From NCBI GenBank assembly GCA_003170275.1, contig PNAM01000015.1, positions 53,546 through 117,545 on the forward strand: 64,000 bases of DNA, in the 5' to 3' direction. The stretch comes from Myxococcales bacterium. Lineage in GTDB: Bacteria; Myxococcota_A; Polyangia; Palsa-1104. The stretch's first letter is position 1. Each line of letters begins with the position of its first letter. The notes below the pieces were generated by a model that was not told the origin of the DNA, did no database searches, and saw only the letters and a program-made list of their open reading frames with translations. The position numbers were made by a program, and so were the translations under genes. Of the stretch, positions 4,926 through 56,659 are shown in pieces.

Positions 4926-4929
<4 letters not shown>
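3400..4929 (+). CDS. sensor histidine kinase (2 TM, HAMP, HisKA, HATPase_c)
   Basis: H-box AAGVAHEVRNPLASIKL; ATPase motifs NVLRNAVEAS and GTGLGLAISRAIARAHGG. True start is probably downstream (GTG/TTG candidates around 3500-3560, before TM1 LLYIALLGVVTSALSLVALV). Confidence 0.85.
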
Positions 4930-6275
<1,346 letters not shown>

Positions 6276-6314
6276 CTCAGGGCGACCGATTTGCCACAGT
6301 GGTACGATGGCGCC

Positions 6315-7445
6315 ATGGGGAAACCGGCGGTCTTGGCGGTGGGGTTGTGCGTCCTCGGCGCGTGCTCGTCGTCGGTGCCCGACTACCCTTCGTATGTCGC
6401 GGCGGCTGACCGGGCGATCTGCCAGCACCAGATCGACTGCGGCTTCCTCGATCCGGCGTACGAGAAGGACTGCGAGCAGCAGTTCGCTTCGTTCCAGGGA
6501 TCGAACGCGACGATTCAAGCAACCTACGACCCGGCGGCGGGCGACGCCTGTCTCGCCACGCTGCGCGGCGCGCTCGACGGATTCGGCTGCCGCGCGCTGC
6601 TGCTCAACGATCTGTCGATCAGCGCGGCGATGGCGATGGCCTGCGCGAACGCCCTGACCGGCAAGGTTCAGACCGGTGGGACGTGTCGCGCGAGCGCGGA
6701 GTGTGCCGGACACGGGACCTGCGTGATCACGTTCGCGAACAACCTGTGCACGAGCGCGTGCGTAGCGCCGGCCCCAGTCGGGCAGAGCTGCGGCGGCTCC
6801 AACGATTGCGTCGACGGTGCCGTTTGCCAGTTCGCCGCGTTGGGACCCACCTGCGTTTCCATCGGAGACGTGGGCGCCGCGTGCTCGCCGGCCGACGGCA
6901 CCGGGGACTGCAAGCCGGGCCTGGCCTGCGCGCCGTCGGCGGATCGCAAGAGCGCGAGCTGCAGCGCGCCGCTCGCGGCCGGGGCGCCGTGCGAAGCGAG
7001 CCCGGAGGCGCGCGGCTCGTGCGGCGGCGAGCTGATCTGCGATCTGTTGCTGACGAGCCCGGTGTGCGCGCCGGAGAAACAGCTCGGCGAGCCGTGCGGC
7101 TCGACCGACGCCTGCGGCCCACACCTGCTGTGCACCTCGTCGGCCGCGGCCACCGCGACCTGCCTGGCGCCCATCCCGCTCGGCGGAGCCTGCGTGGGAG
7201 CGAACCAGGACGCGGCCTGCCTGGCGCCGCACCGGTGCGTCAACGGAGTCTGCTCCGCCCCGCCGACGATCGGTCAGCCCTGCCCCGACGGCGCTTGCCT
7301 CGAGGGCTTCTGCGACGCGACCAAGGTGTGCCACGCGGCGATCGCCGTCGGCGGCGCGTGCGACCCGACCGTCACCGGCCTGTTCCAGTGCCAGGATGGC
7401 GCCACCTGCGACATGACGACCAAGACCTGCAAGCTGTGCATGTAG
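6315..7445 (+). CDS. secreted cysteine-rich repeat lipoprotein
   Basis: Signal/lipobox MGKPAVLAVGLCVLGAC. More than 40 Cys in repeated C-x-C spacing (GTCxxxxxCxxxxxC units), resembling myxobacterial Cys-rich repeat proteins. Confidence 0.7.
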   Translation: MGKPAVLAVGLCVLGACSSSVPDYPSYVAAADRAICQHQIDCGFLDPAYEKDCEQQFASFQGSNATIQATYDPAAGDACLATLRGALDGFGCRALLLNDLSISAAMAMACANALTGKVQTGGTCRASAECAGHGTCVITFANNLCTSACVAPAPVGQSCGGSNDCVDGAVCQFAALGPTCVSIGDVGAACSPADGTGDCKPGLACAPSADRKSASCSAPLAAGAPCEASPEARGSCGGELICDLLLTSPVCAPEKQLGEPCGSTDACGPHLLCTSSAAATATCLAPIPLGGACVGANQDAACLAPHRCVNGVCSAPPTIGQPCPDGACLEGFCDATKVCHAAIAVGGACDPTVTGLFQCQDGATCDMTTKTCKLCM

Positions 7446-42419: not shown

Positions 42420-44195
42420 GTGGCCATGGATATCCTGCGCACCCATCCGATGGTAATCGTCGGTGGGATCCTACAAACGAACCGCTTCTACACGCCGCCT
42501 GACCGATTCCTCCTCGAGCTCGACGCGCGCCGCCGGAGGACCGTACGGAGCGGCGGCCGTCCGTCCGCCCGGGGGCGGGCGACGGCGCAGGTCGAAGAGG
42601 TGGACGTGCTGCGCGGCACGCTCCGCGACCTGGTCGCACTCTCGACGGTGGAAGCGGCGTGGGCCGAGGAGCGCCCACGCGACCTCGCGGCGCGACTCGC
42701 CGACGTCCTGCTCAGTGCGCTGCGCGCGTCGCTGGTGTACGTGCGCCTGGGCCCGGCCGAAGGCGAGACGGCGATCGAGGTCGCGCGCGTCGACGGCAAC
42801 GTCGAGCTCGACGTGCCCGGCATTCGGGCGCAGCTCGGGGTCGGCACCAGCTTCGACGCCGCGACGCCGCCGCGCTACCCCGGCCTGCAGGTCGCGACGG
42901 CGCGGCTCGGCTGGCAGGGCACGGCGGGAATCGCGCTGGTCGGCGCTCCGCGCGCCGACTTCCCGACCGAGCGCGAGCGGTTGCTGCTCGACATCGCGGT
43001 CAACCAGGCGGCGCTGCGCGAGGACCGCGCGCGCCTGCTCGAGCGCGAAAAGGTGGCGCTCGCCGAGGCCGAGGCGGCGCAGCGGCGGCTCCATGCGCTG
43101 TTCATGCAGGCGCCGGTGCCGATCGCAGTCCTCGTCGGCCCCGACCACGCGTTCGAGCTGGCCAATCCGGCCTACTGTGCGATGATGGACCGCGACGACC
43201 TGGTCGGCCTGCCGCTGCGCGCGGCGTTTCCCGAGGCGCCCTACCTCGAGCGGGTCGACGAGGTCTATCGCACCGGCCAGAGCTTCGCCGCCGAGCAGCT
43301 GGCGATGGCCCTTCGCCATCGCGACGGCACGGTCGAAGACGCGGTGTTCCGCCTGCTGGCCGAGCCGACCCGCACCGTCGCCGGCGCGACCGTCGGCGTG
43401 GTGCTGGTCGCGGTCAAGGTCACCGACCTGGTGCGCGCCCGCGAGGCGCTCGAATCGGCGCTCGCCGAGAAGTCCGCGGCGGAGCGGCTGCGCGAGCAGC
43501 TGTTCGGGATCGTAGGACACGACCTGCGCGGGCCGCTGTCAACGATCGTCACCGGAGCGCGACTGCTGCAGGTCCGGGGCGGGCTCGCTCCGGATGCCGC
43601 ACGGACGATCGAGCTCATCCAGCGCAGCGGCGATCGCATGGCCAAGATGATCACCCAACTGCTCGACTACACGCGTGCGTACCTGGGCGGTGGGATTGCC
43701 GTCGAGCGCGGGCCGACCGATTTGGCTTCCGTCTGCGCCGATGTGCTGGCCGAGTACAACACGGCTCGTCCCGACCGGGTCGTCAGCGTCGACGCGGCCT
43801 CCGACTCGGGCGGGCTGTGGGACCGCGAGCGGCTCGCCCAGTTGGTCGCCAACCTGGTCGGCAACGCCATCCAGCACGGCAGAGGCGACCTCCCCATCGC
43901 GCTGCGCCTCGACGGCCGGGGGGACACGGTGTGGCTGACGGTGCACAACCACGGCGAACCCATCCCGCCGTCGCTGCTGCCAACCATCTTCGACCCGTTC
44001 CGACACGGCCGCACGACCGGCAGCGGCCCGAGCGGCGGGCTCGGGCTCGGGCTGTACATTTCGCGCGAGATCGTGCGCGCGCACGGCGGCGAGATCGACG
44101 TGCTCTCGACGGCCGAAGAGGGCACGACCTTCACCGTGCGGCTGCCACGCCAGCCTACCCGCACCGAGCCTACGCCCAGCGCTCAGGTGGGTTGA
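42420..44195 (+). CDS. sensor histidine kinase portion (end of MEDS domain, PAS-like region, HisKA, HATPase_c), continuation of 41913..42389
   Basis: Begins inside a domain (VAMDILRTHPMVIVGGILQTNRFYTPP). H-box FGIVGHDLRGPLSTI. ATPase motifs NLVGNAIQHG and GGLGLGLYISREIVRAHGGEI. The codons 42390..42419 (VYDSAKFGAD) are also open. Confidence 0.8.
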   Translation: MAMDILRTHPMVIVGGILQTNRFYTPPDRFLLELDARRRRTVRSGGRPSARGRATAQVEEVDVLRGTLRDLVALSTVEAAWAEERPRDLAARLADVLLSALRASLVYVRLGPAEGETAIEVARVDGNVELDVPGIRAQLGVGTSFDAATPPRYPGLQVATARLGWQGTAGIALVGAPRADFPTERERLLLDIAVNQAALREDRARLLEREKVALAEAEAAQRRLHALFMQAPVPIAVLVGPDHAFELANPAYCAMMDRDDLVGLPLRAAFPEAPYLERVDEVYRTGQSFAAEQLAMALRHRDGTVEDAVFRLLAEPTRTVAGATVGVVLVAVKVTDLVRAREALESALAEKSAAERLREQLFGIVGHDLRGPLSTIVTGARLLQVRGGLAPDAARTIELIQRSGDRMAKMITQLLDYTRAYLGGGIAVERGPTDLASVCADVLAEYNTARPDRVVSVDAASDSGGLWDRERLAQLVANLVGNAIQHGRGDLPIALRLDGRGDTVWLTVHNHGEPIPPSLLPTIFDPFRHGRTTGSGPSGGLGLGLYISREIVRAHGGEIDVLSTAEEGTTFTVRLPRQPTRTEPTPSAQVG

Positions 44196-44273
44196 ATCAA
44201 AGGGGCGACCCCGACGAAGCGGCGCTCGCTTGCGCCGTTTCGACTGCGTTCTCCACTCCTTGGCACCGGCGAA

Positions 44274-45614
44274 TCAGAAGAAGTCGCTGCTGTCCGGGGC
44301 TGCCGCCTGCGGCGGAGGGCGCACGAGGTCGAGCAGCGCGCGTGCCAGCGGCACTGCCACCGCAGCGTCGGCGCGCGCCGCCTCATCGAGCTTCTGCCAG
44401 CGCTCGACGACCTCGTCGATCTGATCGCTGAGGCCGAGCAGCCGCTCGGCCTTCGCGAAAGCCTCCAGGATCACGTCACAGACCAGGAGGGGCATGACGT
44501 CCGCGTAGGCCAGGGCACGCTCGAGCTCCGCCGTGACCTTCGCCTTGATGTCGGTGTCGTGCTTGATGAGCACGCCGCGCTGTGAAATGACCCCCAGCGA
44601 GTCGAGGTACTTGTCGAAGCCCTCACAGTCGTTGCGGTTCCGCGCGGGCGTCCCGCTCGCCAGCACCCCGCGGACGCGATCGAACTCCTTGCGGGTGTCG
44701 GAGCGCAGGTAGGAGAACTCTTTGCTCGCGATGAAGCCGTCCACCAATTCGACGATGAGACGGTAGCTCGCCTGCGCCACCTCCGGATCGGTCGCGCGAT
44801 TCTGGATCGGTCGGTTGAGCTCGCGCACGGTCCGCTGCAGCTCGGCGATCGCCCGCCGCACCGCCAGCGCCTTGCCGAGCATGTCCCGGTGCCCGGGGAT
44901 CATCCGCTCGGGCTCGGCGTGCCCGAGGAAGCACTCATACACGGTCGTCATGGCCGCGAAGACGCCGTCCATCATCGCGGTGGTCGCGTCGTTCAGATCG
45001 GTGAGCGCTTGTTCCATGCGATCGTTGGACAGCGCGTCCGCGAAGCGACGATCGTACTCGCCAAGCTCCGAGCTCAGCCCGTAGTGGAGCGTGTCCATCT
45101 CGCCGGTGAGCGCCCGCCACTTCTCCTCATCGGTCTTGTTGCGCGCGGCGATGATGCCCAGCGCTGCCCCGCGGGCGATCGTTCGCATGCTGGGCCGGTT
45201 TCGCGAGGGCCTCTCGACATCGGCCTCCACCGGCGCGGCGTTCTCAGACGCGTCGGGGGTCTCCGCCGCCGCGACGCGGAGGTACTCGAGCAGCCGGCGG
45301 AAGTGGCTCAGAACAGCGTCCGAGACGATCTGGATCTGTGCCTCGCCGCCCTCGCGGACATAGAGCGCGGCGTCGAGCTCACCGAGGGCGCGCACGGCCT
45401 CCTCGCCCAGCTGCAGCAGCTTCTGCACCTTGCGGCGGATACGCCGATCTGCGATCGCGCTCAGGATCTCGGCGAGTGCAGTGTTCTCGGGGGACTCGGA
45501 CAACGTGAGGTCGATAGTAGCAAGACGTGGCACCGAGGCGGCACCAACCCTCCTTCGGGGAGCGATGTTTCCGACGAGCAAGACGAATGAAGCGAAGCCG
45601 GCCAACGGGACCAA
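44274..45614 (-). CDS. hypothetical alpha-helical protein (orphan, no domain recognised)
   Basis: 446-aa ORF lying between the kinase gene and the displaced tRNA-Glu fragment. Start uncertain. Slightly less GC-rich than its neighbours by eye. Confidence 0.55.
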   Translation of the reverse strand: MVPLAGFASFVLLVGNIAPRRRVGAASVPRLATIDLTLSESPENTALAEILSAIADRRIRRKVQKLLQLGEEAVRALGELDAALYVREGGEAQIQIVSDAVLSHFRRLLEYLRVAAAETPDASENAAPVEADVERPSRNRPSMRTIARGAALGIIAARNKTDEEKWRALTGEMDTLHYGLSSELGEYDRRFADALSNDRMEQALTDLNDATTAMMDGVFAAMTTVYECFLGHAEPERMIPGHRDMLGKALAVRRAIAELQRTVRELNRPIQNRATDPEVAQASYRLIVELVDGFIASKEFSYLRSDTRKEFDRVRGVLASGTPARNRNDCEGFDKYLDSLGVISQRGVLIKHDTDIKAKVTAELERALAYADVMPLLVCDVILEAFAKAERLLGLSDQIDEVVERWQKLDEAARADAAVAVPLARALLDLVRPPPQAAAPDSSDFF

Positions 45615-45670
45615 TTCCCGTCGGGGTCAAATCATTTCGAAAAGACGAACGGTTGAACGGTGATGTGATG

Positions 45671-45712
45671 GCGACCCCGACGGGATTTGAACCCGTGTTA
45701 CCGACGTGAAAG
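45671..45712 (-). repeat. left att repeat = displaced 3' half of tRNA-Glu (anticodon loop to C74, followed by genomic CCA)
   Basis: 42 nt (gcgaccccgacgggatttgaacccgtgttaccgacgtgaaag) identical to 56585..56626. No tRNA 5' half is adjacent. Confidence 0.9.
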
Positions 45713-45840
45713 CGTTGTAGGGGCGTCCGGTGAGAAGACACGCACGTCGCGCCTAGTGTCCACTCCACCGACGGGAACACGCGCCCTGTCCACACGACTC
45801 GGCGATGGTCGAGGGAGGGCTGTCCAGTCGATTTCCGATC

Positions 45841-45864
45841 GATCTACTGCAAGATCTACTGCAA
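45841..45864 (+). repeat. tandem 12-bp direct repeat GATCTACTGCAA x2 (candidate integrase/Xis arm-type sites)
   Basis: Perfect tandem copies at 45841..45852 and 45853..45864. A third copy (ATCTACTGCAA) lies at the other end of the element, 56546..56556, in the same orientation. Confidence 0.6.
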
Positions 45865-45930
45865 TAAAGACGAGCGCTGCTGAATGCTACGAAACGCATT
45901 ACATAACCAATACTGTTTAATTCCGCATAC

Positions 45931-45957
45931 TTGACTGGTCGGCGTTTTCAGCATACT
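45931..45957 (+). promoter_or_regulatory. possible sigma70-type promoter for the leftmost element genes
   Basis: TTGACT (45931..45936) - 15 nt - CATACT (45952..45957), 14 nt before ATG 45971, within an unusually AT-rich stretch. Spacer is short, so this is weak. Confidence 0.3.
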
Positions 45958-45970
45958 TCTAGAAGTCGAA

Positions 45971-46198
45971 ATGAGCCGACTACTCCCGGGCGCCGAACCT
46001 CTCGATCAAGAGACCCAACGCAAGCTCGCGCGCGTCGTCGAGCGTCTCGGCGCGCTAGACGCGAGGCGCCTGATCGGCTGCACGCGGTCGACCCTCGAGC
46101 GGGCGCAGCGCGGAGATCGCCTGCGAGCAGGATCGATCCTGCTGCTGCGCATGGCTGTCAACGAGCTCGACGAAGCACTCGCGGCGGTGCGCTTGTGA
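45971..46198 (+). CDS. small HTH-like regulator (hypothetical)
   Basis: 75 aa; LGALDARRLIGCTRSTLERAQRG resembles a Cro/cI-type HTH. First gene inside the element. Confidence 0.5.
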   Translation: MSRLLPGAEPLDQETQRKLARVVERLGALDARRLIGCTRSTLERAQRGDRLRAGSILLLRMAVNELDEALAAVRL

Positions 46199-46485
46199 TC
46201 GACGCGACCGCCGAAGAAGAAGCGTTTGCCGTGGCTGCCCTTTCCTTTGTTGAAGAGCCGGCCCCCGGACAGGAGGCCGGCACCTATTGGGATCCCGTTG
46301 TCGTCCGCCGCGCGCAGCGTGTGATCGCCGAGCAACACGCGCAGCGGCGCGGGCGCATCCGCGCGATCGTTCGACCACGTGCTCGTGCTCGTCGCGCACC
46401 GCGGCGCCAGCGCCGGGCGGCCCGTCGGGCGTCCGCATCCCCTGGCAGTAGCAGCGACGGCCCAGCCCCAGCCGGTGTAGCGTGA
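46195..46485 (+). CDS. hypothetical small protein (doubtful)
   Basis: GTGA overlaps at both ends (with 45971..46198 and 46482..46736). The C-terminal half is Arg-rich and junk-like. Confidence 0.3.
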   Translation: MIDATAEEEAFAVAALSFVEEPAPGQEAGTYWDPVVVRRAQRVIAEQHAQRRGRIRAIVRPRARARRAPRRQRRAARRASASPGSSSDGPAPAGVA

Positions 46486-46736
46486 GCGCCGGCATCCTCG
46501 AGCAATTGGCCGCGCGCGTCGCCGACCTCGAGCGCCAGGTCGCTGAGCTCAAGTCCGCGCCCGCGCCGATTGCTCCTACCGACGACGATCTAATCAGCGT
46601 CGCGCAAGCTGCGAAGCTGCGCGATTGTTCCGTCGCTGCGGTGCACAAGGCGATACAGCGCGGCCGGATCCCCTGCGTGCGCATTGGCCGCGCGGTGCGC
46701 GTGCGGCGGCGCGATGCCGATGTAGGTGGCCGTTGA
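46482..46736 (+). CDS. excisionase-family HTH DNA-binding protein
   Basis: LISVAQAAKLRDCSVAAVHKAIQRGRIPCVRIGRAVRVRRRD matches the excisionase/MerR-like HTH pattern (..EAA..L..S..TV.....G.IP..RIGR...I...D). Confidence 0.75.
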   Translation: MSAGILEQLAARVADLERQVAELKSAPAPIAPTDDDLISVAQAAKLRDCSVAAVHKAIQRGRIPCVRIGRAVRVRRRDADVGGR

Positions 46737-46899
46737 CCCAGCCGGCGATCGCGCAAGCTCCACGCCTCAGCTGCGATGAGTGCGCACGGCCGTGCTCTGC
46801 CACCGACGGGATCCGGCTCGTCGCTGAGACGGCGAGTTCATGTTTCTTGTGTTGGGCTTGCCTCGCCGCGTATGCGGCGGCGCGCGCGAGGAAGGGATC

Positions 46900-49104
46900 G
46901 TGACCGCGATGCTCGGCGAGGCGTTGGCTCTCGCAGCTCGCGGATTTCGCGTGTTCCCTGTCGACGGGAAGTTGCCGCGCGTCAAAGCCTGGCAGAGGCA
47001 CGCGACCACCGACGAGGCGCAGATCCGCGCGTGGTGGGCGCACTGGCCCAACGCTGACATTGGGATCGCAGGTGGTCGCGAGGCGGGGATCTTCGTCGTA
47101 GACATGGACCCGCGAAACGGTGGCGAGGCATCGTTCGCCGCGCTCGAGGGTGAGCACGGCGCTTTCCCGTCGACGTACACGGTCATGACGGGCGGCGACG
47201 GCGCACACCTCTACTACGTGTACCCCGACGACGGTGCGCCCAATGGCTGGCGCAAGGAGATCGCGCGCGGCGTCGACATCAAAGCCGACGGCGGGTATGT
47301 CGTCGGGCCCGGCAGCCTGCACGCGTCGGGGAAGAGGTACGCGATCCTCGACGACGTGCCGATCGCACCGGCGCCGGCGTGGCTGCTCGAGCTCGCGTGC
47401 AAGCCAGCGCCGGCCGAGAAGCCCCCCAAGAGAGATGTATTCGCCGACGCAGCGGACGCCCCCGACCGCCCATACGTCGGCGCGGCCGTGCGCGACGAGG
47501 TGGCGCGCGTCGCTGCAGCCACCGAGGGCACGCGGAACGATCAGCTGAACACGTCGGCGTTCTCGCTCGGCACGCTCGTTGGTGCTGGCGAGCTCGAGCG
47601 CGCGCACGCCGAGCGGCGCCTGCTCGCCGCGGCGGTCAAGGCCGGCCTGCCAGAGAGCGAGGCGGCGCGCACGGTCGCGAGCGGTCTGGACGCCGGCACT
47701 GCGAAGCCGCGCGAGTTGCCGACAACCTTCCGGCTGACCGACCTCGGGAACGCGGAGCGCTTCGCACAGGACCACAAGGACGCAGCGATCTTCGTACATC
47801 AGTGGAACGCCTGGCTGCTGTGGAACGGTCGCACTCATACGCGCGACGCGCAGGAACAGATCCGCGCGCTCGGCAAGCAGACCGTGCGCAACATCTTGCG
47901 CCAGGCTGGCCAGTGCGAGGATGACGAGCGACGAAAGCTGTTGACGGCCCACGCCACCAAGAGCGAGAGCCGCGCCGCGCTCGCAGCGATGATCTCGCTT
48001 GCGCAGTCGGAGCTAGCCGGATCGCCCGACCAGTTCGACCAACATCGCGATCTACTCAACTGCGCGAACGGCGTCGTCGACTTGCGTAGCGGCGAGCTGC
48101 GACCGCACCGCCGAGAGGATTACTTTACCAAGCTCACGCCGATCGAATACGCGACCGCGGGACCGAAGCGCCATCGTTGGGATCAGTTCTTGCGCGAGAT
48201 TTTCCGCGGCGACGAGGAGCTCGTCGGCTACGTCAAGCGCTTCGTGGGTTACAGCCTCACCGGGCACACGCGCGAGCACGCCTTTTTCGTCCTGTACGGC
48301 GGTGGCCGCAACGGCAAGGGGCGATTCATTCGCCAGCTCATGGCGCTGCTCGGCGACGCGGCGCGCACGACTGCGTTCGGTACGTTCACCGTCGACCGTG
48401 AGCAGGGATCGAAGAACACGCCAGCGCTCGCCAAGCTCTGCGGCATGCGGCTCGTCGTCGCCGGCGAGCCCGACGAGGGCACGCGCTTGAGCGAGAGCGT
48501 GATCAAGAGCCTGACCGGGGAGGATGAGATCGAGGCGTGCGCGAAATACGAATCGCCGTTCACCTTCACGCCGCAGTTCAAGATCGTGCTGCACACCAAC
48601 CACCGGCCGGAAATTCGTGGGACCGACCTAGCGATCTGGAAGCGGCCCAGGATGATCCCGTGCCTCGCGACGTTCGACGGACAGGACGGCAACCCGGCGC
48701 CCGATCTTGAGCTCGACGCCAAGCTCGACGCGGAGCGCTCCGGGATCTTGGCGTGGGCCGTCGAGGGCGCAGTCGAGTGGTACCGCGTCGGGCTCGGCAC
48801 CTGCGCCGCAGTCGAGGCCGCGACTGCCGACTATCGGGCAGCGTCCGACGCGCTCGCGCCGTTTCTCGAGGAGTGCGTGCAGGTCGCGGAGGCGGCGACG
48901 TTCACGCCCAACCACGCGATCTACGGCGTGTACACGCGTTGGTGCACGCGCAACGGGGTCGAACCGTGGCGCGCAGACACGCTCTCGAAGCGGCTCGTCG
49001 CCCGGGGCTATCGCCCGGACAAACATGGAGGCGTGCGCGGTTTCCGGGGCGTGGGGCTGCGTCCGGCTGAGCACCGATCCCCCTTCGCTGAGGTACGCCC
49101 ATGA
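46900..49104 (+). CDS. bifunctional primase-polymerase (AEP) + PriCT + D5_N / P4-family SF3 helicase
   Basis: AEP motifs GFRVFPV, IFVVDMDPRNGG, GGDGAHLYY, GVDIKADGGYVVGPGS. PriCT-like RNDQLNTSAFSLGTLVGAG. Walker A FFVLYGGGRNGKG. GTG 46900 is preceded by GAGGAAGGG (ATG 46909 is an alternative). Confidence 0.88.
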   Translation: MTAMLGEALALAARGFRVFPVDGKLPRVKAWQRHATTDEAQIRAWWAHWPNADIGIAGGREAGIFVVDMDPRNGGEASFAALEGEHGAFPSTYTVMTGGDGAHLYYVYPDDGAPNGWRKEIARGVDIKADGGYVVGPGSLHASGKRYAILDDVPIAPAPAWLLELACKPAPAEKPPKRDVFADAADAPDRPYVGAAVRDEVARVAAATEGTRNDQLNTSAFSLGTLVGAGELERAHAERRLLAAAVKAGLPESEAARTVASGLDAGTAKPRELPTTFRLTDLGNAERFAQDHKDAAIFVHQWNAWLLWNGRTHTRDAQEQIRALGKQTVRNILRQAGQCEDDERRKLLTAHATKSESRAALAAMISLAQSELAGSPDQFDQHRDLLNCANGVVDLRSGELRPHRREDYFTKLTPIEYATAGPKRHRWDQFLREIFRGDEELVGYVKRFVGYSLTGHTREHAFFVLYGGGRNGKGRFIRQLMALLGDAARTTAFGTFTVDREQGSKNTPALAKLCGMRLVVAGEPDEGTRLSESVIKSLTGEDEIEACAKYESPFTFTPQFKIVLHTNHRPEIRGTDLAIWKRPRMIPCLATFDGQDGNPAPDLELDAKLDAERSGILAWAVEGAVEWYRVGLGTCAAVEAATADYRAASDALAPFLEECVQVAEAATFTPNHAIYGVYTRWCTRNGVEPWRADTLSKRLVARGYRPDKHGGVRGFRGVGLRPAEHRSPFAEVRP

Positions 49105-49460
49105 CTTCCCAGAAGCGGCGGCGGTGGACGCCTGGACACCTGTGGACACTGATTCCTGAGAATTATTTTCACGAGGAAACGAAGCTAAAAGTTCCGGATC
49201 TGGCGTCCACAGGTGTCCAGGCGTCCGGGAAAGGCGGCCAAAGCGCCTTCCTCGCGCCCACCACGCGCACCACGGGTCGCCGCGCCGACCGTGCGCGCGC
49301 TGCGACACACTCCCGCTACGTCGGTAACCGCCTTGTAATCATTCAAGCATCCGCGCTTTGCAGTAGACCTTGCAGCAACGCGATCGAGGATCGCGCCCCA
49401 GCCCACGGCCCCAGCGCCGCGCCAACCCCCGCCCCAGCCCAGCCCCAGGTGCGCGCGTGA
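49101..49460 (+). CDS. 119-codon ORF coupled to both the primase and TerL genes (possible small terminase / DNA-binding protein, or non-coding ori/pac region)
   Basis: ATGA overlap with the primase stop and GTGA overlap with the GTG 49457 start of TerL. Weak codon bias by my hand count. Contains the 22-bp inverted repeat. Confidence 0.3.
   Translation: MTSQKRRRWTPGHLWTLIPENYFHEETKLKVPDLASTGVQASGKGGQSAFLAPTTRTTGRRADRARAATHSRYVGNRLVIIQASALCSRPCSNAIEDRAPAHGPSAAPTPAPAQPQVRA
49126..49226. repeat. perfect 22-bp inverted repeat (GGACGCCTGGACACCTGTGGAC / GTCCACAGGTGTCCAGGCGTCC) flanking a 57-bp AT-rich spacer
   Basis: Arms at 49126..49147 and 49205..49226 are exact reverse complements. Each arm contains GGAC three times. 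The spacer is far more AT-rich than the surroundings. Confidence 0.85.
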
Positions 49461-51058
49461 AGCCCTCTCAGCCGCGCTGCGCCGCCGTCACGCGCGCCGA
49501 CAAGCCGTGCACGGGCCCGGCGAGCTACGGCGCGCTGTGCCTGCAGCACGCCGCGCAGGCGCGCAACCCCGAGGCCCTTGCAGTGCAGCGCGCACGCCTG
49601 GCCGGCCGGAAGGGCCGGGGCCTCGAGCGGCACGCCGCCGACCCGTGCGCGTTCGCGCGCGAGCTCGGCGTCGAGCTCACTGCTGCCCAGGCGGTCATGT
49701 TGCTCGGCATCGCGAGCAACCCGCGCTACGCGCTCGCGTGCGGGCAGCGCACCGGCCGCACGATGGTCTTCGCGGTCGCGCTCCTGTGGTGGTGCGCGAC
49801 CAGGCCGAACGCGCTGGGGCTGCTATCGACGCCGTCGCACTCGCACATGAAGCACACGGTCTGGCGCCAGATCGGCGAGTTGCTGCGCGCCGCGGGCGCC
49901 GCCGGCCGGCTGGGCGCGACGTGGTACGAGACGCCGGGCAGCGGCGTGCAGTTCGCGAACGGTGGCCGGATTCTCGGCATCGCCTCCGACGCGGGCGAGC
50001 GCCTGCAGGGCTACGCGGCGCCCGACCTGTTGATCGTGGTCGACGAGGCCAGCGGCTACCCCGAGACCATGATCGCGTCGCTCATGTCGAACCTGGCAGG
50101 GGGTGGGCGCGCGGTGGTCGGGGGCAACCCGCTCAACAACTCGTCCTACTTCGCCAAGCGGTGGAAGACACCGGGGTGGGTCACGGCGAACGTCTCGGCG
50201 CTCGACGTGGCGCGCTCCGCTGATCGCAAGCCCGGGCAGGCAACCGAGACGTGGTGCACGGAGCTGCTCGAAGAGTTCGGGGCGGAGTCCATCGTCTACC
50301 GCGCCCGCGTGCTCGGGCTGTTCTCGGATGCGAACGTGAACGGCGTGTTCACGCTGCTCGAGATCGAGGAGGCGCAGCAGCGCTACGACCTCGTCATGGC
50401 CAACCCCCGCGCGTTCGCCGACGCCGGGCCGCTACATCTTGGCGTCGACGTGGCCCGCACGGGTGCTGACTTCACATGCGTGGTAGCGCGTCGGGGGAGC
50501 ATTGCGCTCGCGCCTCAGCTCTGGCGGATCCCCGACCTCGTCACGGTCTGCGACAAGGTGCTCGAGTACGCGCGCACGCTGCGCACGGCCGACGAGCGCG
50601 TGGTGGTCAAAGTCGACGGCGTCGGCGTCGGTGCTGGCGTAGTCGACATTCTCAAGCGCGCGCCCGACGTCGACGTGGTCGAGGTCCAGGCCGCTGGCGC
50701 CCCGGCACGCGACGCCTACACGAACGTGCGCAGCGAGTCGACGTTCACGACGCGCGACTGGCTGCGCGCGAGCGGCTGCATCGCGCGCGACTCGCGGCTC
50801 GAGGGAGAAATGGCAGCGCTCGCCTACTGCTTCGATCAGAGGAACAAGCTGAAGATCCGATCGAAGGACGAGCTGCGCAGAGAGCTCGGGCGCAGCACCG
50901 ATCGTTTCGACGCACTCGCGCTCGCCGTGTACGCGCCGGCAGCGGATCACAGCTGCGCCGACAATTGGGCCGCGCTGGCAGACCGCGGGGATCTCGAGAC
51001 AGCCCTTGAAAATGTCTTCGGTCAACTCTTGCACGACAACGATGGCCCAATTTGGTGA
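49457..51058 (+). CDS. terminase large subunit-like ATPase/nuclease (deviant Walker A GQRTGRT)
   Basis: Walker A-like ACGQRTGRT; Walker B DLLIVVDEASG. RNaseH-like nuclease motifs HLGVDVARTGADFT, VKVDGVGVGAGVVD, DRFDALALAVYA. The track ORF starts at TTG 49370; GTG 49457 is preferred because of the GTGA coupling. Confidence 0.8.
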   Translation: MKPSQPRCAAVTRADKPCTGPASYGALCLQHAAQARNPEALAVQRARLAGRKGRGLERHAADPCAFARELGVELTAAQAVMLLGIASNPRYALACGQRTGRTMVFAVALLWWCATRPNALGLLSTPSHSHMKHTVWRQIGELLRAAGAAGRLGATWYETPGSGVQFANGGRILGIASDAGERLQGYAAPDLLIVVDEASGYPETMIASLMSNLAGGGRAVVGGNPLNNSSYFAKRWKTPGWVTANVSALDVARSADRKPGQATETWCTELLEEFGAESIVYRARVLGLFSDANVNGVFTLLEIEEAQQRYDLVMANPRAFADAGPLHLGVDVARTGADFTCVVARRGSIALAPQLWRIPDLVTVCDKVLEYARTLRTADERVVVKVDGVGVGAGVVDILKRAPDVDVVEVQAAGAPARDAYTNVRSESTFTTRDWLRASGCIARDSRLEGEMAALAYCFDQRNKLKIRSKDELRRELGRSTDRFDALALAVYAPAADHSCADNWAALADRGDLETALENVFGQLLHDNDGPIW

Positions 51059-51068
51059 GGAGCAATCA

Positions 51069-51359
51069 ATGAGTGTTGCAAACCTGCTGTTCCACATGTC
51101 CCGCGTCGAGCAAGAAAACGGCAATCTATTGGAGGCCCGCGACCTCGAGCGCGACGCGCTCGACGCCGAATGCGAGCGCAAGCTCGATATCGCCAAGCGG
51201 GCGATCCTGTTGCGAAGGGCCTGCCGTTGCCGCCTTGCGGCGCGCGACGCCGTCGGCGATGTGCGCGAGCGCCTGCTCGAGCAGTCGCGAGCGCTCGACG
51301 AGCAGGCTCACGGCGAGGCGTCCGTGATTTCCGACGCCGAAAGGGTGGTGACCAAGTGA
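51069..51359 (+). CDS. small coiled-coil protein (hypothetical)
   Basis: ATG 51069 preceded by GGTGAGGAG. 96 aa, helical and charged. GTGA overlap with the next gene. Confidence 0.5.
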   Translation: MSVANLLFHMSRVEQENGNLLEARDLERDALDAECERKLDIAKRAILLRRACRCRLAARDAVGDVRERLLEQSRALDEQAHGEASVISDAERVVTK

Positions 51360-52702
51360 TCGCCGAGCGCGTTCGTCGCGTCGATTTCGTGCGGGCCGAA
51401 CAGCTCGCGTCTCCCGAGGTGCTGCCAAACGGTTGGGTGAGGCTGTCGGCAAAGATCGCGCGCTGCGGTGTGCAGGTTTATCAGAACGAAGACGGCAGCG
51501 CGCGCCGCGAGTTGCGCCTTGCCGAAGACGTTTTCGATCCGCCGTCGCTCAAGTCTTTCGTGGGTGTGCCTCTGACCGACGGTCACCCGCCGCAGTTGCT
51601 CGACGCGCTCACGGCTCAGCAGCACACAGCGGGCTCGCTCTCGGACGTGCGCAGGTTCGACGGCGAATGGATGGCCGGATCGCTGCTGGTCACGGACGCG
51701 AATCTCGTAACGGCGATCAACAACGGCAAGGCCGAATGCTCGAACGGTTATTCGTGCGAGCTCGACATGACGCCTGGCGTGCATCCGCTCTACGGGCCTT
51801 ACGACGCGATCCAGAAAAACATCCGCGGCAACCATCTCGCGCTCGTCGATCGCGCTCGTGCAGGAGCAGAGGCGCGCGTGAAGCTCGACGGTGCAGCCGT
51901 GCAGATCGAACCCCAAAAGGAGAAAAAAATGCCCGCGAAGATCGACGAAACCGAAAAGAAGACCTCGACGATCGAGGAAGTCACCGCTCAGCGCGACGCG
52001 CTCGCCGCCCAGCTCGCGCCGACCGCCTGCCCGATGCACGCCGACGGAGAAGCGGCCGAGTGCGACTATTGCGACGACGACGGCATGATGCCCAAGGTCA
52101 TGGCCGATCGCCTCGCCCCCGACGAGGAAGAAGAAGGCGAAGAAAAGGGCGACGCGGCGGAGCAGCTCGCCGATTTGATCGCCGATGCGCGCGTGCACCT
52201 TGGGCGCGATTGGAAGCGCGAAGGACGGAACGCGGTCGCGATCAAGCGCGCCGTCGTCGAGAAGCTCGTGCCGACCGCGCAGCTCGACGGCAAGAACGCC
52301 AGCTATATCACCGCTCGTTACGACGCCGAGATCGCGCACGTCGACGCGAAGCGCCTCGACGGGGCCGACGCGTTGCGCGCGGGCATGCTGGTGCCGCGCA
52401 ACGATCAGCCGATCTTGCGAGGCAGAGCCGCGATGCTTGCGCAGCACGCCGCCGCTGGCAACGCCAACGCGCCGCGCGGCGACGGCGCCAACCCGTTCGC
52501 GGGTCTGACCGGGCGCGACTTGCTGATCGCGCGCTTGGCCGCGGCAGATCGGGCCGACGCTGCGCAAGCGCCGGGCACGCGCACGTCCTACGACCATACG
52601 AAGGGCTCGCCCTCGAACGGCCGGCCGGGACCGAGCGCCGCCAGCGTCAAGGCGCTCGCTGGAAAGGTGGACGCGATCGCGAAGAAAAAGGCGCGCAAGT
52701 GA
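51356..52702 (+). CDS. DUF2213-like phage head-morphogenesis (scaffold/protease-like) protein with acidic coiled-coil C-terminal half
   Basis: GWVRLSAKIARCGVQVYQ...VGVPLTDGHP...SNGYSCELD...YGPYDAIQKNIRGNHLALVDRARAG matches my recollection of DUF2213 conserved blocks. C-terminal EEEEGEEKGD region. Confidence 0.65.
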   Translation: MIAERVRRVDFVRAEQLASPEVLPNGWVRLSAKIARCGVQVYQNEDGSARRELRLAEDVFDPPSLKSFVGVPLTDGHPPQLLDALTAQQHTAGSLSDVRRFDGEWMAGSLLVTDANLVTAINNGKAECSNGYSCELDMTPGVHPLYGPYDAIQKNIRGNHLALVDRARAGAEARVKLDGAAVQIEPQKEKKMPAKIDETEKKTSTIEEVTAQRDALAAQLAPTACPMHADGEAAECDYCDDDGMMPKVMADRLAPDEEEEGEEKGDAAEQLADLIADARVHLGRDWKREGRNAVAIKRAVVEKLVPTAQLDGKNASYITARYDAEIAHVDAKRLDGADALRAGMLVPRNDQPILRGRAAMLAQHAAAGNANAPRGDGANPFAGLTGRDLLIARLAAADRADAAQAPGTRTSYDHTKGSPSNGRPGPSAASVKALAGKVDAIAKKKARK

Positions 52703-52869
52703 TCGTCGTCGACCAGATCGAGGAGCGGGAGGCCGACGAGCGCGCGCGTGTGCGTCTTGCGGAAGGGCATCGCGAGCAGTGCCACGACTGCGTACTTTGC
52801 CTGATCGATCGACCGTTGCCGCTTGTCGTCGAGCAACCCGACGAGCGCGCAGCGCGCGGCACCAACTAA
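52699..52869 (+). CDS. hypothetical small protein (doubtful)
   Basis: 56 codons; GTGA overlap with the upstream gene; ends 18 nt before the RBS/ATG of the next gene. Confidence 0.3.
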   Translation: MIVVDQIEEREADERARVRLAEGHREQCHDCVLCLIDRPLPLVVEQPDERAARGTN

Positions 52870-52887
52870 CCAACGAAGGAGAGCACG

Positions 52888-54303
52888 ATGTCGGGTCCGT
52901 ACGGGTGCACGAGCGCCGGCTTTCTCCGAAAAGACGGCGTGACCATCGCATCGGAGGTCGACGCCGACCTCAAGAAAATCCTTGGCGCATCGGCGGGCAG
53001 CGAATCTGACGGGTCGATCCCGCCTTCCAGTTTCGCCGGCCAGCTCAAGGCGCTGATCGTCAAGCGCGAGATCGCCAACTGGGACTTGTTGCAGTCCGTG
53101 TACGCCGCGAAAGATGCGCGGACCAATGGAGATTCAGCCCAGGACTCGACTGCCGTGCTCGTCGGTGCGCAACGCCAGCCGGCCGAACAGTCGACCGCCA
53201 CCGTCACGTGCACCGGCGACCCAAATACGCTGCTGAAGGTTGGGCGCGTGGTCGCCACGTCTGAGGGCGTTCGCTTCGACAGCGACGCCGAGATCACGAT
53301 CCTCGAGCTCGCGGCGTGGGTCGCGCTCACCGCCTACGCGATAGGCGATCGCGTCACCAACGCCGGCCGGGCCTTTCTCTGCATCGCGCCGGGCACCTCT
53401 GCAGCCTCGGGTGGGCCCACCACCACCGACGCCGATATCACCGACGGCACGGTGCACTGGCGCTACATGGGCCAGGGCACGGGGGCGATCGACGTCGGCG
53501 CAACGGCGGAGCTCGTCGGACCGCTCCGCGCCGACTCAGGCACGTTGACGCAGATCGCCACGCCCGTGGCCGGCTGGCGCTCAGCGATCAACCTGCTCGA
53601 TGCCGTGGTCGGGCAGTACATCGAGAGCAACGCGGCGTTTCGGCGCCGGCGCGATGCCGAGCTGCAGGCGACCGGCAACGCCACGGTCGACGCGATCCGC
53701 TCGGACGTGTTGCGGATCGGAGAGGGCACGAACAATCCGGTCGTGTCGTGCCGCGTGTTTTCCAATGACACCGACGTCGTCGACGCCGACGGGCTCGCCG
53801 CGCACTCGGTTGAAGTGCTCGTGCGTGGCGGCGCGGACGCCGACGTGGCGCTCGCCATCTGGCGCACCGTCTCCGGTGGAACACGCACGCTCGGCACGAC
53901 GGCAGTGGTAGTGCAGGACAGTGAGGGCAAAGACCAGACCGTGCGCTTCACGCGCCCCGAGGAAATCGATCTCTGGATCATCGCGGACGTGACCTACTAC
54001 GCCAAGGCGTTTCCGGCCGACTTGGCGGCGGCGACGGCGCTGCTCAAGGATCAGATCGTCTACTTTGGCGACTCCTTCGTCATCGGTGAATCGGTGCGCT
54101 CAAGCGCGCTCGAGGCGCAGTTGTTCGACGGGTATTCAGATCCAAGCACGCCGCCGGTCGCGGGTGTTCTCGACGTGACCAGCTTGCTGATCGGCCTGGT
54201 CGATCCGCCGGTCGCATCGACGACGATCCCGATCGGTGCGCGACAGTTGGCCGTGTTCGATACCTCGCGCGTTTCGATCGTGCTGACGCCGGGGACGCCG
54301 TAG
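52888..54303 (+). CDS. baseplate J-like protein with an inserted CBM5/12-like motif
   Basis: GAAGGAGAG RBS. ...TATVTCTGDPNTLLKVGRVVATSEGVRFDSD... and IESNAAFRRRRDAELQATGNATVDAIRSDVL (compare P2 gpJ ESDTDYRLRIQQAFEGLSVAGSVGAY). Insert AWVALTAYAIGDRVTNAGRAFLCIAPGTS resembles W..T.Y..GD.V...G..Y.C carbohydrate-binding motifs. Confidence 0.65.
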   Translation: MSGPYGCTSAGFLRKDGVTIASEVDADLKKILGASAGSESDGSIPPSSFAGQLKALIVKREIANWDLLQSVYAAKDARTNGDSAQDSTAVLVGAQRQPAEQSTATVTCTGDPNTLLKVGRVVATSEGVRFDSDAEITILELAAWVALTAYAIGDRVTNAGRAFLCIAPGTSAASGGPTTTDADITDGTVHWRYMGQGTGAIDVGATAELVGPLRADSGTLTQIATPVAGWRSAINLLDAVVGQYIESNAAFRRRRDAELQATGNATVDAIRSDVLRIGEGTNNPVVSCRVFSNDTDVVDADGLAAHSVEVLVRGGADADVALAIWRTVSGGTRTLGTTAVVVQDSEGKDQTVRFTRPEEIDLWIIADVTYYAKAFPADLAAATALLKDQIVYFGDSFVIGESVRSSALEAQLFDGYSDPSTPPVAGVLDVTSLLIGLVDPPVASTTIPIGARQLAVFDTSRVSIVLTPGTP

Positions 54304-54304
54304 C

Positions 54305-54490
54305 GTGGCACGGGCGAGCACGAAGGGAGAGAGCAACGGGCGACATCGCCTAACCGCGAGTGACGTGCTCGAGATCCGCCGTCTCGTTGCGGCGGGTACG
54401 CCCCAATCGGAGCTCTCGCGCGCGTACGGCGTTGCGAAGCAGACGATCCACGCGATCACGTCGGGCCGCAGTTGGCGCCATGTCGCGTAG
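54305..54490 (+). CDS. small HTH DNA-binding protein
   Basis: 61 aa; LTASDVLEIRRLVAAGTPQSELSRAYGVAKQTIHAITSGRSW (resolvase/sigma-r4-like HTH). Starts 1 nt after the upstream stop. Confidence 0.6.
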   Translation: MARASTKGESNGRHRLTASDVLEIRRLVAAGTPQSELSRAYGVAKQTIHAITSGRSWRHVA

Positions 54491-54549
54491 TCGGCCAACT
54501 TGACAAATGGGTTATCAATGGTCATCGTATGGCCATAGGAGGTAGCGCC

Positions 54550-54780
54550 ATGAGCCATCCTGCGGTAGCGTCGCGGGCGGTGCCGAAACCGCCAACGAAG
54601 CCCAAGAAGGGCGAACCGTTCAAGATGCACGTGATTCTTCCCGGCGAAATGGTCGAGATGCTCGACAACTACGCCAAGAAGATGACTCGCGATGCGCCTT
54701 TCGAGCGTCCGTTGACTCGCACCGACGCGATGAAAGCGATCCTCGTCGAAGGCATGAAAGCCGTCGGCCTGATCAAGTAG
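54550..54780 (+). CDS. ribbon-helix-helix (CopG/Arc-like) protein
   Basis: Strong AGGAGG RBS. FKMHVILPGEMVEMLDNYAKKMTRD...TRTDAMKAILVEGMKAVG fits a beta-strand-helix-helix pattern. Confidence 0.6.
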   Translation: MSHPAVASRAVPKPPTKPKKGEPFKMHVILPGEMVEMLDNYAKKMTRDAPFERPLTRTDAMKAILVEGMKAVGLIK

Positions 54781-54872
54781 CGACGCGCGTCGCCGCTCAC
54801 GTCGAGCGGCTGAAACAACAGCGCCCATCGGTCACCTTAGCGGGGACAACCGACGGGCGCGAGAGGAGCACC

Positions 54873-55034
54873 ATGAGTACATCACAGCCCCAGGCTCGCG
54901 TCGAGTTGCTCGAGCGCGCCGCCCGGTGCGTCCGCGCCCTAGTGGAAGCGATCGAGGGCCGATCGCCCGTGCCACCCTCAGATCTGCTCTACGCCGCTCG
55001 CGAGCTGCTCGCCGATCTGCAGGCGGTGCGCTGA
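54873..55034 (+). CDS. 53-aa hypothetical protein coupled to the integrase gene
   Basis: Below the ORF-track size cutoff. My translation: MSTSQPQARVELLERAARCVRALVEAIEGRSPVPPSDLLYAARELLADLQAVR. GAGAGGAG RBS. TGATG overlap with the integrase start. Confidence 0.45.
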   Translation: MSTSQPQARVELLERAARCVRALVEAIEGRSPVPPSDLLYAARELLADLQAVR

Positions 55035-56179
55035 TGGCGAGCGTTTTCAAGCGGGGCAGCAAGAGCCGGCCGCGCTGGTACGTCCAGTTCAAGGGCGCGG
55101 ACGGCAAGTGGAAGATGGAGCCGACCGACGCCGCGACGAAAGCCGAAGCGTGGGTGATCGCCGAGCAACGCCAGGCCGACGTGCGGGCCGGCAAGCCCGA
55201 CCCGCGGAACGCGCCGACGTGCGGTGCGCTCATGCCCGTGTGGCTTGACTCGCTGGTGAACAGAAACAAGAAGGGCGATCGCTACACTGCGGAAAAGCAC
55301 CTGCTGCCCGCCTTCAAGGACCGGAAGCCACGGGAGATCGAGCACACCGATATCGTGCAGTGGCTCGATCGCCTCAAGACTGGCGAGCACCCCCTTGCGG
55401 GTGGAACGCAACGCAGCTGCCTCAACCTGCTCTCTCGCTTCTTCGGATGGGCCATGGCCCGCGGTCACGCGAAGATCAACCCGGTGCGCCAGTTGCCCAA
55501 GGGCGAGCGCCCGCGCCAAGCGCCCAAATCGCAGGACGCGCCGTGGATCAAAGACGACGCGGTCGCGCTGGCGATCGCCGCTGCGCTCCCCTCCCCCTTC
55601 GGCCTGATGTACTTCATAGGGAATCGGTGCGGGATGCGCCCCGGTGAGGTCTTTGGGCTGCGCGTGTCCGACTTGGCCGAGCTCGAGCACGGTCGGGTGC
55701 GCGTCCGCTACTCAGAAGCGGGGCCGCTCAAGGAGGACGATGGCCGGGGCGAGGCCAAGGTGAAGTGGGCGCCCGCGCCGCCCGACACTCAGCTCGCGCT
55801 CGCGTCCTGGCTGGCAAAGCGTAAGTCGGAGGAGGCGCAGCTCGAGGACTACCTGTTCGACGCGCCCAAGCCGAAGCGTGGGAAGGGCTGGGGGTTCTAC
55901 ACGAAGATGCAGCGCAGCCGCGCCTGGCGAGCGCTGGCCAAGACGCTACGCGGCGAGATGACTTGGTACGAGGCGAGCCGGCACAGCTTCGCCAGCCGCC
56001 ACCTAGAGGCAGGCGCGCCGCTCGAGGAAGTGAGTGGCGCCCTGGGTCACTCGACGCCAGCGGTCACGTTGCGCCACTATTCCCGCTTCGTCCGCAAGAC
56101 CTACTCGCCTGCGATGCTCGGCGGGCTCAAGCTCACCGACGCGAAGGTGATCCCGTTCGTGAAAACGAAGACAGGCTAA
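55034..56179 (+). CDS. tyrosine recombinase / phage integrase
   Basis: N-terminus MASVFKRGSKSRPRWYVQFKGADGKW (arm-binding type). Catalytic region GMRPGEVFGLRVSDL, SRHSFASRHLEAGAPLEEVSGALGHSTPAVTLRHYSRF (R..HxxR..H..Y). Adjacent to the tRNA-Glu att site. Confidence 0.93.
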   Translation: MASVFKRGSKSRPRWYVQFKGADGKWKMEPTDAATKAEAWVIAEQRQADVRAGKPDPRNAPTCGALMPVWLDSLVNRNKKGDRYTAEKHLLPAFKDRKPREIEHTDIVQWLDRLKTGEHPLAGGTQRSCLNLLSRFFGWAMARGHAKINPVRQLPKGERPRQAPKSQDAPWIKDDAVALAIAAALPSPFGLMYFIGNRCGMRPGEVFGLRVSDLAELEHGRVRVRYSEAGPLKEDDGRGEAKVKWAPAPPDTQLALASWLAKRKSEEAQLEDYLFDAPKPKRGKGWGFYTKMQRSRAWRALAKTLRGEMTWYEASRHSFASRHLEAGAPLEEVSGALGHSTPAVTLRHYSRFVRKTYSPAMLGGLKLTDAKVIPFVKTKTG

Positions 56180-56233
56180 GCCCGCATGGCAAGCATGAAA
56201 CGGCACCGTCCTCACCTCATCCACACCAGCCGC

Positions 56234-56521
56234 TCAGCTTTTCGTGTTCGGCACGTCGGACTGACGTTGCGCCTCGATGGCCTGACGGGTGATTTCATTG
56301 AAGCTCGCATCCGTGAACCACGTCTTCCCCGAAGGCAAAATCACCTCGTCGCCAAGAAGCCGCCACACGTGCGCTGAGACGGATAGCAGGGTCCACACCA
56401 CGTTCAGCGCATCTTGCAGCTTGTACGGCGACTTCATCACCCCAGCCACGTGCTCCGACACTAGCCGCTGCAGCGACTCATCGAAGTCGAAGGCGAATTC
56501 CTTGGGCGGTGGATCGCTCAT
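56234..56521 (-). CDS. hypothetical 95-aa protein (only minus-strand gene in the element; lower GC)
   Basis: ORF between the integrase and the att site; no domain recognised; visibly less GC-rich than the rest of the element. Confidence 0.45.
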   Translation of the reverse strand: MSDPPPKEFAFDFDESLQRLVSEHVAGVMKSPYKLQDALNVVWTLLSVSAHVWRLLGDEVILPSGKTWFTDASFNEITRQAIEAQRQSDVPNTKS

Positions 56522-56545
56522 GCGGGCAATCGGGTTTGCTGCAAA

Positions 56546-56556
56546 ATCTACTGCAA
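56546..56556 (+). repeat. third copy of the ATCTACTGCAA motif
   Basis: Same orientation as the tandem copies at 45841..45864. Partial look-alikes sit nearby (TTTGCTGCAA 56535..56544, CATCTACGAG 56565..56574). Confidence 0.55.
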
Positions 56557-56584
56557 TGAGTGGACATCTACGAGCTAACTACTA

Positions 56585-56626
56585 GCGACCCCGACGGGAT
56601 TTGAACCCGTGTTACCGACGTGAAAG
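56585..56626 (-). repeat. right att repeat (inside the intact tRNA-Glu)
   Basis: 42 nt identical to 45671..45712. Confidence 0.9.
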
Positions 56627-56659
56627 GCCGGTGTCCTAGGCCAGCTGGACGACGGGGTC
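56586..56659 (-). tRNA. tRNA-Glu(UUC): tRNA-Glu (anticodon UUC), no encoded CCA
   Basis: Minus strand GACCCCGTCGTCCAGCTGGCCTAGGACACCGGCCTTTCACGTCGGTAACACGGGTTCAAATCCCGTCGGGGTCG. 7-bp acceptor stem, anticodon loop CTTTCAC, T-loop GGTTCAAATCC. Close to E. coli tRNA-Glu. Followed by CTA rather than CCA. Confidence 0.92.

Follow-up and report, generated by a model that had tools for sequence, protein, structure and literature searches.

In the staphylococcal pathogenicity islands (SaPIs) the replication origin lies immediately downstream of the rep gene and contains 6–12 penta- or hexanucleotide iterons; its centre is AT-rich, and two or more iterons flank this centre on either side in opposing orientation (PMC9371898; bioRxiv 10.64898/2026.10.17.759575). 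The Rep protein, a self-loading superfamily 3 (SF3) helicase that in SaPI5 is fused to a primase, reads these iterons with its C-terminal winged helix (PMC9371898; bioRxiv 10.64898/2026.10.17.759575). The present analysis concerns a perfect inverted repeat in a 64,000-nucleotide stretch of DNA from Myxococcales bacterium (GenBank assembly GCA_003170275.1, contig PNAM01000015.1, positions 53,546 to 117,545); this whole 64-kb stretch is called “the window” below, and positions are counted from its first nucleotide. The repeat sits within a ∼10.96-kb integrated element (bp 45671–56626) that is inserted in a tRNA-Glu gene and is phage-satellite-like and integrative in character. It is predicted from its anatomy, its position and the genes beside it to be the replication origin of this ∼11-kb element, a reading that we consider probable. 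The features of the site and of the two genes that border it are as follows.

46840–49104, + strand: primase-helicase gene, presumed initiator, 754 amino acids, with Prim-Pol, D5_N, DUF5906 (SF3 ATPase) and Pox_D5 domains (Pfam, PHROG)
49101–49460, + strand: 119-codon open reading frame (ORF119), probably spurious, with no coding signature, no family match and no credible homologue
49105–49456, no strand: gap of 352 nt that separates the primase-helicase gene from the TerL-like gene, non-coding as judged by codon-position G+C and codon log-odds
49125–49149, + strand: left iteron arm, with [T/C]GGACRC at 49125, 49133 and 49143, directed towards the spacer
49148–49204, no strand: AT-rich spacer of 57 nt and 42% G+C, presumed DNA-unwinding region
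49203–49227, − strand: right iteron arm, with three inverted copies at 49203, 49213 and 49221
49457–51058, + strand: TerL-like gene with a GTG start (phrog_2, E = 3.3e-25), where the third-position G+C signature begins

The two arms (bp 49126–49147 and 49205–49226) are 22 nt each, 100% complementary and 57 nt apart. The initial annotation of this DNA had described a perfect 22-bp inverted repeat with a 57-bp AT-rich spacer, GGAC three times in each arm, and a position between primase-helicase and TerL genes; the repeat was confirmed by sequence reading and by a repeat finder, the GGAC count is correct, and the neighbors are identified as primase-helicase and TerL-like by Pfam and PHROG. The inverted repeat is real and very probably functional. 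The runner-up perfect inverted repeat in the window (spacer of at most 150 nt) has 13-nt arms compared with 22 here, and the longest arm in 30 first-order Markov resamples of the window was 17 nt at most. The 22-mer has no further copy in the window at up to three mismatches (shuffles expected none) and no second copy in the 8.17-Mb genome. When folded as single-stranded DNA the region has a predicted energy of −35.3 kcal/mol (z = −5.4). The spacer is 42.1% G+C and the window as a whole 69.0%. A G+C content this low is reached by just 88 of the 63,943 windows of 57 nt (the lowest 0.14%); these fall at four places in the 64 kb, and two of the four are attachment (att) regions of the same element.

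The GGAC motif extends to a 7-nt iteron word, [T/C]GGACRC, with an invariant core of 4–5 nt, which occurs six times at the site against a background of 0.33 per 400 nt elsewhere in the window. The iterons are spaced 8–10 nt within each arm, and both arrays face inward over a 53-nt iteron-free core; the first of them starts 21 nt from the helicase stop (49104). The exact word TGGACRC is under-represented in the 64 kb (15 found, 26 expected), and 5 of these 15 fall at the repeat. There is no second iteron cluster within the element, where TGGACRC occurs otherwise as single copies at 45756, 47687, and 52668.

Comparison with SaPI1, SaPIbov1, SaPI5 and other phage-inducible chromosomal islands (PICIs) shows that the window site likewise lies directly 3′ of the replicase gene (21 nt), that its six copies are within the 6–12 iterons of such origins, that its central AT-rich region (42% G+C) is flanked by half of the iterons on each side (3 + 3), and that its arms oppose one another with three + and three − copies where the islands have at least two per side. 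The SF3 initiator with a C-terminal winged helix that is characteristic of SaPIs and PICIs also has its counterpart in the window protein, the winged helix there coming from a structural model with moderate support. As far as sequence can tell, all features of SaPI origins are present in the window, and the predicted origin is in kind an ordinary SaPI/P4-type one. Unlike the SaPIs, the window element resides in a 69% G+C host, has only remotely related proteins and a compact ∼103-bp site, uses 7-nt GGAC-based iterons in perfectly complementary arms, and carries TerL-like, protease and baseplate-J-like genes.

P4 provides the second comparison. Its alpha protein and the window protein both have D5_N, an SF3 ATPase (DUF5906) and a C-terminal Pox_D5 domain; Pfam places the last of these on residues 669–720 of the window protein and residues 670–768 of alpha, a region that we take to be alpha's origin-binding domain. 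In the P4 record the alpha gene (4636–6969, minus strand) is followed immediately on its 3′ side by the crr site (4291–4590), whose type-1 iterons are octamers that occur in either orientation, and P4 and the window element are both small, integrative, and use a tRNA gene as target. On the other hand, the primase of P4 alpha is of the Zn-ribbon/Toprim type and that of the window protein is a PrimPol, and the two proteins can be aligned over the ATPase only (24% identity). P4 requires two iteron sites, ori and crr, which are ∼4.5 kb apart, whereas one cluster was found in the window element; this single cluster makes the window layout closer to that of the SaPIs than to that of bipartite P4. 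A P4-type bipartite origin was accordingly rejected as a candidate, there being no second TGGACRC cluster in the element. Inverted arrays of short initiator sites beside AT-rich DNA are also found in the origins of simian virus 40 (large T antigen) and the papillomaviruses (E1), where two hexamers assemble; these are eukaryotic viruses with unrelated origin-binding domains, and the likeness is an analogy of mechanism only.

The AlphaFold2 model of the primase-helicase has a mean predicted local distance difference test (pLDDT) score of 89.6, and the best structural matches of the full-length model are the PrimPol-SF3 helicases C962R of African swine fever virus (ASFV) and E5 of monkeypox virus. 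By sequence, the ATPase part of the window protein matches chain 7ola_A (“DNA primase”; E = 9e-4), which is presumably the SaPI5 PriRep structure. The last ∼70 residues of the model are folded as helix, strand, helix, helix and a three-strand wing. The full-length fold search is dominated by the helicase and is uninformative on the C-terminal domain, which was therefore modelled separately. In the PDB, the DNA-binding winged-helix domain of RFX comes closest to this 110-amino-acid model (pLDDT 81.5), with E = 1.9e-3 and a target-normalised TM score of 0.70. The next matches are the corresponding region of the ASFV enzyme and Orc1/Cdc6 winged helices in complex with origin DNA; the P4 origin-binding domain is not among the top 50 matches of the C-terminal model. 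With moderate confidence, then, the C-terminal domain of the putative initiator is modelled as a winged helix.

If the inverted repeat is the origin, the winged-helix C-termini of the excised element's own PrimPol-SF3 helicase would bind the iterons, one helicase hexamer would load on each arm in opposite orientations, the AT-rich core would melt, and the PrimPol domain would prime replication that runs both ways. Iteron binding, melting and origin activity are what we infer from the arrangement of the site and of the protein.

The site has no close DNA relatives in the collections that were searched. With bp 48800–49800 as query, 60 related genomes gave short G+C-rich chance matches only, and a slightly degenerate form of the arm pattern (two R positions) had no match in metagenome and viral contigs. 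The comparison was therefore made through the helicase protein, whose closest relatives are 47–58% identical over the part from D5_N to the C-terminus; a primase search of genome contigs gave relatives at 30–37% identity only, with no iterons seen. DNA was compared for loci L068, L069, L070, L072 and L073 (47–56% identity) and L074 (42% over full length). Locus L069 equals the window in iteron core and geometry, with three copies of TGGACRS, a 55-nt gap and three inverted copies, the array beginning 5 nt past the helicase stop. L070 has four copies of [T/G]GACAG, a 51-nt gap (25% G+C) and three inverted copies, and its first arm overlaps the last helicase codons. Behind the helicase stop L068 has seven copies of GACAGA and L072 has eight of GACAG[C/A]. 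Arm complementarity in the relatives is 76–85%, and each arm keeps its own iteron periodicity.

Among more distant relatives (31–40% helicase identity), L034 carries GTGACTA more than ten times, in either orientation and about stretches of AT-rich DNA, L035 has two copies of GGTGGAG, a spacer and two inverted copies (one exact, one CCTCCAC), and the iteron words behind the helicase genes of L039, L040 and L067 are AATGACGC, GGTGACGC and CGCGTGCAG, respectively. Relatives at 51–56% identity have related cores (TGGAC, GACAG), and those at 31–40% have unrelated words. It had been suggested that homologous elements be checked for a repeat architecture that is kept while the sequence drifts, and the iteron clusters behind these related helicase genes give a positive answer. 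In an alignment of the C-terminal regions of five sequences only, the window and L069 proteins, whose iterons are of the TGGAC type, share the pattern KRL..ARGYR.DK, and the proteins of the GACAG group (L070, L072, L068) differ there; this difference may be a read-out of iteron specificity. By prediction, the KRL..ARGYR.DK stretch belongs to the recognition helix and the wing.

The locus-specific words were picked after inspection, and an unbiased scan of 5-mers was therefore run, in which each 120-nt window received the score of its least probable 5-mer cluster (Poisson, either strand, relative to the frequency of that word in the locus). This statistic replaced an earlier one (an exact 6-mer with two or more copies per strand) that was too strict and by which the window scored 0. 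The unbiased scan gives first place to the stretch that directly follows the helicase stop in 7 of the 13 relatives' loci, and in L073, L074, L041 and L066 the site behind the helicase is unremarkable. The strongest 5-mer cluster in the L070 contig is of CCAGG (10 copies in 120 nt, ∼211–330) and lies upstream of the helicase operon, away from the putative origin.

The relatives fetched with the helicase share no other gene with the element, except for one weak match, in L055, to the small 75-amino-acid ORF; L070 carries a Mu-type portal. Homologues of the window TerL are present in L034 and L035 (28–33% identity), where they lie ∼1.5 kb beyond the iterons. The gene directly after the iterons is an endonuclease VII gene in L034 (7010–7348) and a RuvC-like resolvase gene in L035 (6884–7369), neither of which the window element has, and a weak TerS-like ORF in L035 is beside TerL, away from the iterons. 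The lack of other shared genes and the distant TerL genes argue that the module of iterons and AT-rich DNA goes together with the 3′ end of the replicase gene, rather than with the terminase. Judging from these gene orders, the iteron module is linked to the replicase gene, as a replicase/origin cassette predicts and unlike a pac site.

The 352-nt gap that holds the repeat is spanned by ORF119, which the initial annotation had proposed as a possible TerS-like gene with an embedded pac site. The start/stop coupling that it had seen is there, since ORF119 overlaps both neighboring genes (ATGA at 49101–49104 and GTGA at 49457–49460), and the TerS-like gene itself is not supported. The G+C content of ORF119 by codon position is 0.65/0.62/0.69, compared with 0.69/0.51/0.85 for the primase and 0.70/0.52/0.89 for TerL; the third-position signal in the primase frame fades near 49000–49100, and that in the TerL frame begins at ∼49400–49460. 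With codon log-odds trained on 19 long, high-GC3 ORFs of the window, ORF119 scores −0.05 per codon and the remaining gap frames −0.51 and −0.65, where in-frame 119-codon segments score 1.00 ± 0.26 and out-of-frame segments −1.13 ± 0.26. ORF119 is ∼4 standard deviations under the coding segments, only 1 of 73 in-frame segments scores as low, and the scores of all the gap frames have the pattern of non-coding DNA.

ORF119 has no match in Pfam or PHROG even at E = 1, and 400 genomes of the same class gave four chance-level matches only, with E ∼1e-4 per genome and with stop codons in three of the four; there is no credible homologue among them. Open frames of this length are frequent in this DNA of 69% G+C (142 ORFs of at least 50 amino acids overlap one 18-kb stretch). 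The corresponding gaps in the relatives (188 to 583 nt) carry no gene call, and in P0002 and P0004 (56–58% identity; gene tables only) the helicase gene is followed by gaps of 354 and 532 nt, respectively, that have no called gene. ORF119 is thus probably not a gene but a frame that is open by chance in DNA of high G+C.

The remainder of the gap (bp 49227–49456) has several small features of its own. There is a 6-bp hairpin at 49231–49249, a second, less G+C-rich patch at ∼49320–49380, and a palindrome, CGCGATC-GAG-GATCGCG, at 49379–49395. A C-rich stretch (49394–49441) contains a 12-nt direct repeat, CGCCCCAGCCCA, at 49394–49405 and 49430–49441 (36 nt apart), and this pair adjoins the upstream side of the TerL-like GTG start. 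A 12-nt identity, GCAACGCGATCG, between bp 49375–49386 of the window and 4737–4748 of L069 lies behind the iterons in both and overlaps the window palindrome; it is the sole blastn match of the non-coding tail to the relatives' gaps and, with E = 0.03 in a tiny database, may be due to chance. A late promoter or packaging signal within 49227–49456 is possible.

The initial annotation had left three readings of the region side by side, an origin, a TerS gene with a pac site, or both. The origin is favored by the anatomy of the repeat, the 21-nt distance to the initiator gene, the domains of that initiator, the lack of coding character in the gap, and an architecture that is kept beside related helicase genes; the TerS/pac reading is not supported, given an ORF119 without coding signature and a repeat that stays with the helicase. 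Several points weigh against the origin. The site has only six short iterons in ∼103 bp, compared with ∼300 bp in SaPI origins; its core is AT-rich only relative to this genome (the L069 gap is 56% G+C); and the 22/22 match of the arms is unnecessary for iteron function and unexplained, the arms of the relatives matching at 76–85%. In P4 the iterons that follow alpha form crr, which serves as an auxiliary cis element and is distinct from ori proper. Among the relatives, L073 and L074 have nothing comparable behind the helicase gene, and ∼20 of roughly 30 distant loci have no iteron cluster there. Only the 5-mer scan is free of the choice of iteron words by inspection, and in it the site in the window is 3rd of ∼6,400, that in L069 is 7th and that in L070 12th.

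The other features of the element, which is bounded by an exact 42-nt direct repeat (45671–45712 and 56585–56626) equal to the 3′ part of tRNA-Glu(ttc), are these.

45671–45712, no strand: left att repeat, an orphan copy of the tRNA-Glu 3′ part, with an exact match to 56585–56626
45971–46198, + strand: small ORF
46482–46736, + strand: HTH_17 (Xis/AlpA-like) protein gene
downstream of the TerL-like gene, + strand: DUF2213 head-protease-like gene
after the DUF2213 gene, + strand: baseplate-J-like gene
54305–54490, + strand: gene for a small helix-turn-helix (HTH) protein, with weak HTH matches below the Pfam cut-offs
54926–56179, + strand: tyrosine integrase gene
56585–56626, no strand: right att repeat, within the intact tRNA-Glu gene
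56585–56659, − strand: tRNA-Glu(ttc) gene

No recognizable TerS was found in the element by Pfam or PHROG. The N-terminus of the TerL-like protein has a Cys/His motif, C-x-A-x-T-x(5)-C ... C-x-x-H (bp 49457–49560; DUF5763 at E = 0.017, below the Pfam cut-off), and in L040 (helicase 38% identical, same gene order) the gene after the iterons opens with the same motif at ∼2990–3080. The second-longest perfect inverted repeat of the window (45616–45685) has 13-nt arms and a 44-nt spacer; it extends into the left att repeat and probably reflects tRNA-derived sequence.

An operator or promoter is the first of the other explanations. A regulator (an HTH protein of the element or a helper-phage protein) could occupy both arms and control the operon of TerL, protease and baseplate-J-like genes by looping or occlusion, with a promoter in the AT-rich core. 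The repeat does lie at the border of the replication and morphogenesis genes, its core is AT-rich, and the element encodes two HTH proteins (46482–46736, HTH_17, and 54305–54490, weak). However, a scan of bp 48800–49700 found no sigma-70-like promoter, three tandem short repeats per arm at a distance of 53–57 nt are an atypical operator layout, and the architecture is kept behind helicase genes regardless of which genes lie downstream, so an operator seems unlikely.

A packaging signal (a pac, cos or other terminase site) would be recognized either by the TerS of a helper phage or by TerL through its Cys/His N-terminus, ORF119 being perhaps a degenerate TerS. The repeat is 230 nt upstream of the TerL-like gene, the element lacks a recognizable TerS, and the weak DUF5763-like Cys motif at the TerL N-terminus also starts the post-iteron gene in L040, all of which would suit such a site. 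It is nevertheless a distinctly unlikely explanation; ORF119 has neither a coding signature nor a homologue in 400 genomes of the class, the same architecture stands behind related helicases in contigs that yielded no homologue of this TerL, and in L034 and L035 the iterons are ∼1.5 kb from TerL, with the weak TerS-like ORF of L035 beside TerL instead. The origin could also double as a packaging start, if the Cys/His (DUF5763-like) module of the TerL-like protein recognized the iterons, the hairpin or the tail at 49227–49456. We hold this equally doubtful; if true, replication and packaging would start from one ∼350-bp control region. Similarly doubtful is a role of the perfect 22-nt hairpin, when exposed on unwound single-stranded DNA, as a start signal for the PrimPol domain.

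The 22-bp stem could, as RNA on a read-through transcript, be a terminator, an attenuator or an RNase III site that separates early from late expression, and the very stable predicted hairpin (z = −5.4) and the shared strand of the flanking genes agree with this. It is made very improbable by the lack of a U-tract and of any terminator-like site in the scan of 48800–49700, by an Rfam scan of 44000–54000 (E up to 1) that gave chance-level matches with none at family threshold, and by the relatives, whose arms are 76–85% complementary with the iteron periodicity kept per arm; imperfect arms of this kind have the pattern of protein sites and not of base pairing. Hardly credible, finally, are a real small ORF119 protein with palindromic codons, which has the start/stop coupling to both neighbors in its favor and failed coding tests and a lack of homologues against it, and a miniature inverted-repeat transposable element (MITE) made up of the 101-bp unit, whose 22-bp terminal inverted repeats would be of the typical ∼20-bp size, but which is single copy in the 8.17-Mb genome, has an arm pattern unmatched in the metagenome and viral collections, and shows no target-site duplication (flanks ...GCGGCGGT and GGGAAAGG...).

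To our knowledge, phage satellites and their replication modules have hardly been described in the high-G+C bacterial group concerned. For a small integrative element from a high-G+C bacterial host, the predicted origin and its presumed initiator form a concrete, testable candidate pair, and they probably correct an annotation error in which a hypothetical 119-amino-acid protein is called over a cis-acting site. The helicase/iteron pairs found here (TGGAC and GACAG cores, 3 + 3 geometry) should be usable for studying how the winged helices of SF3 initiators recognize their iterons.

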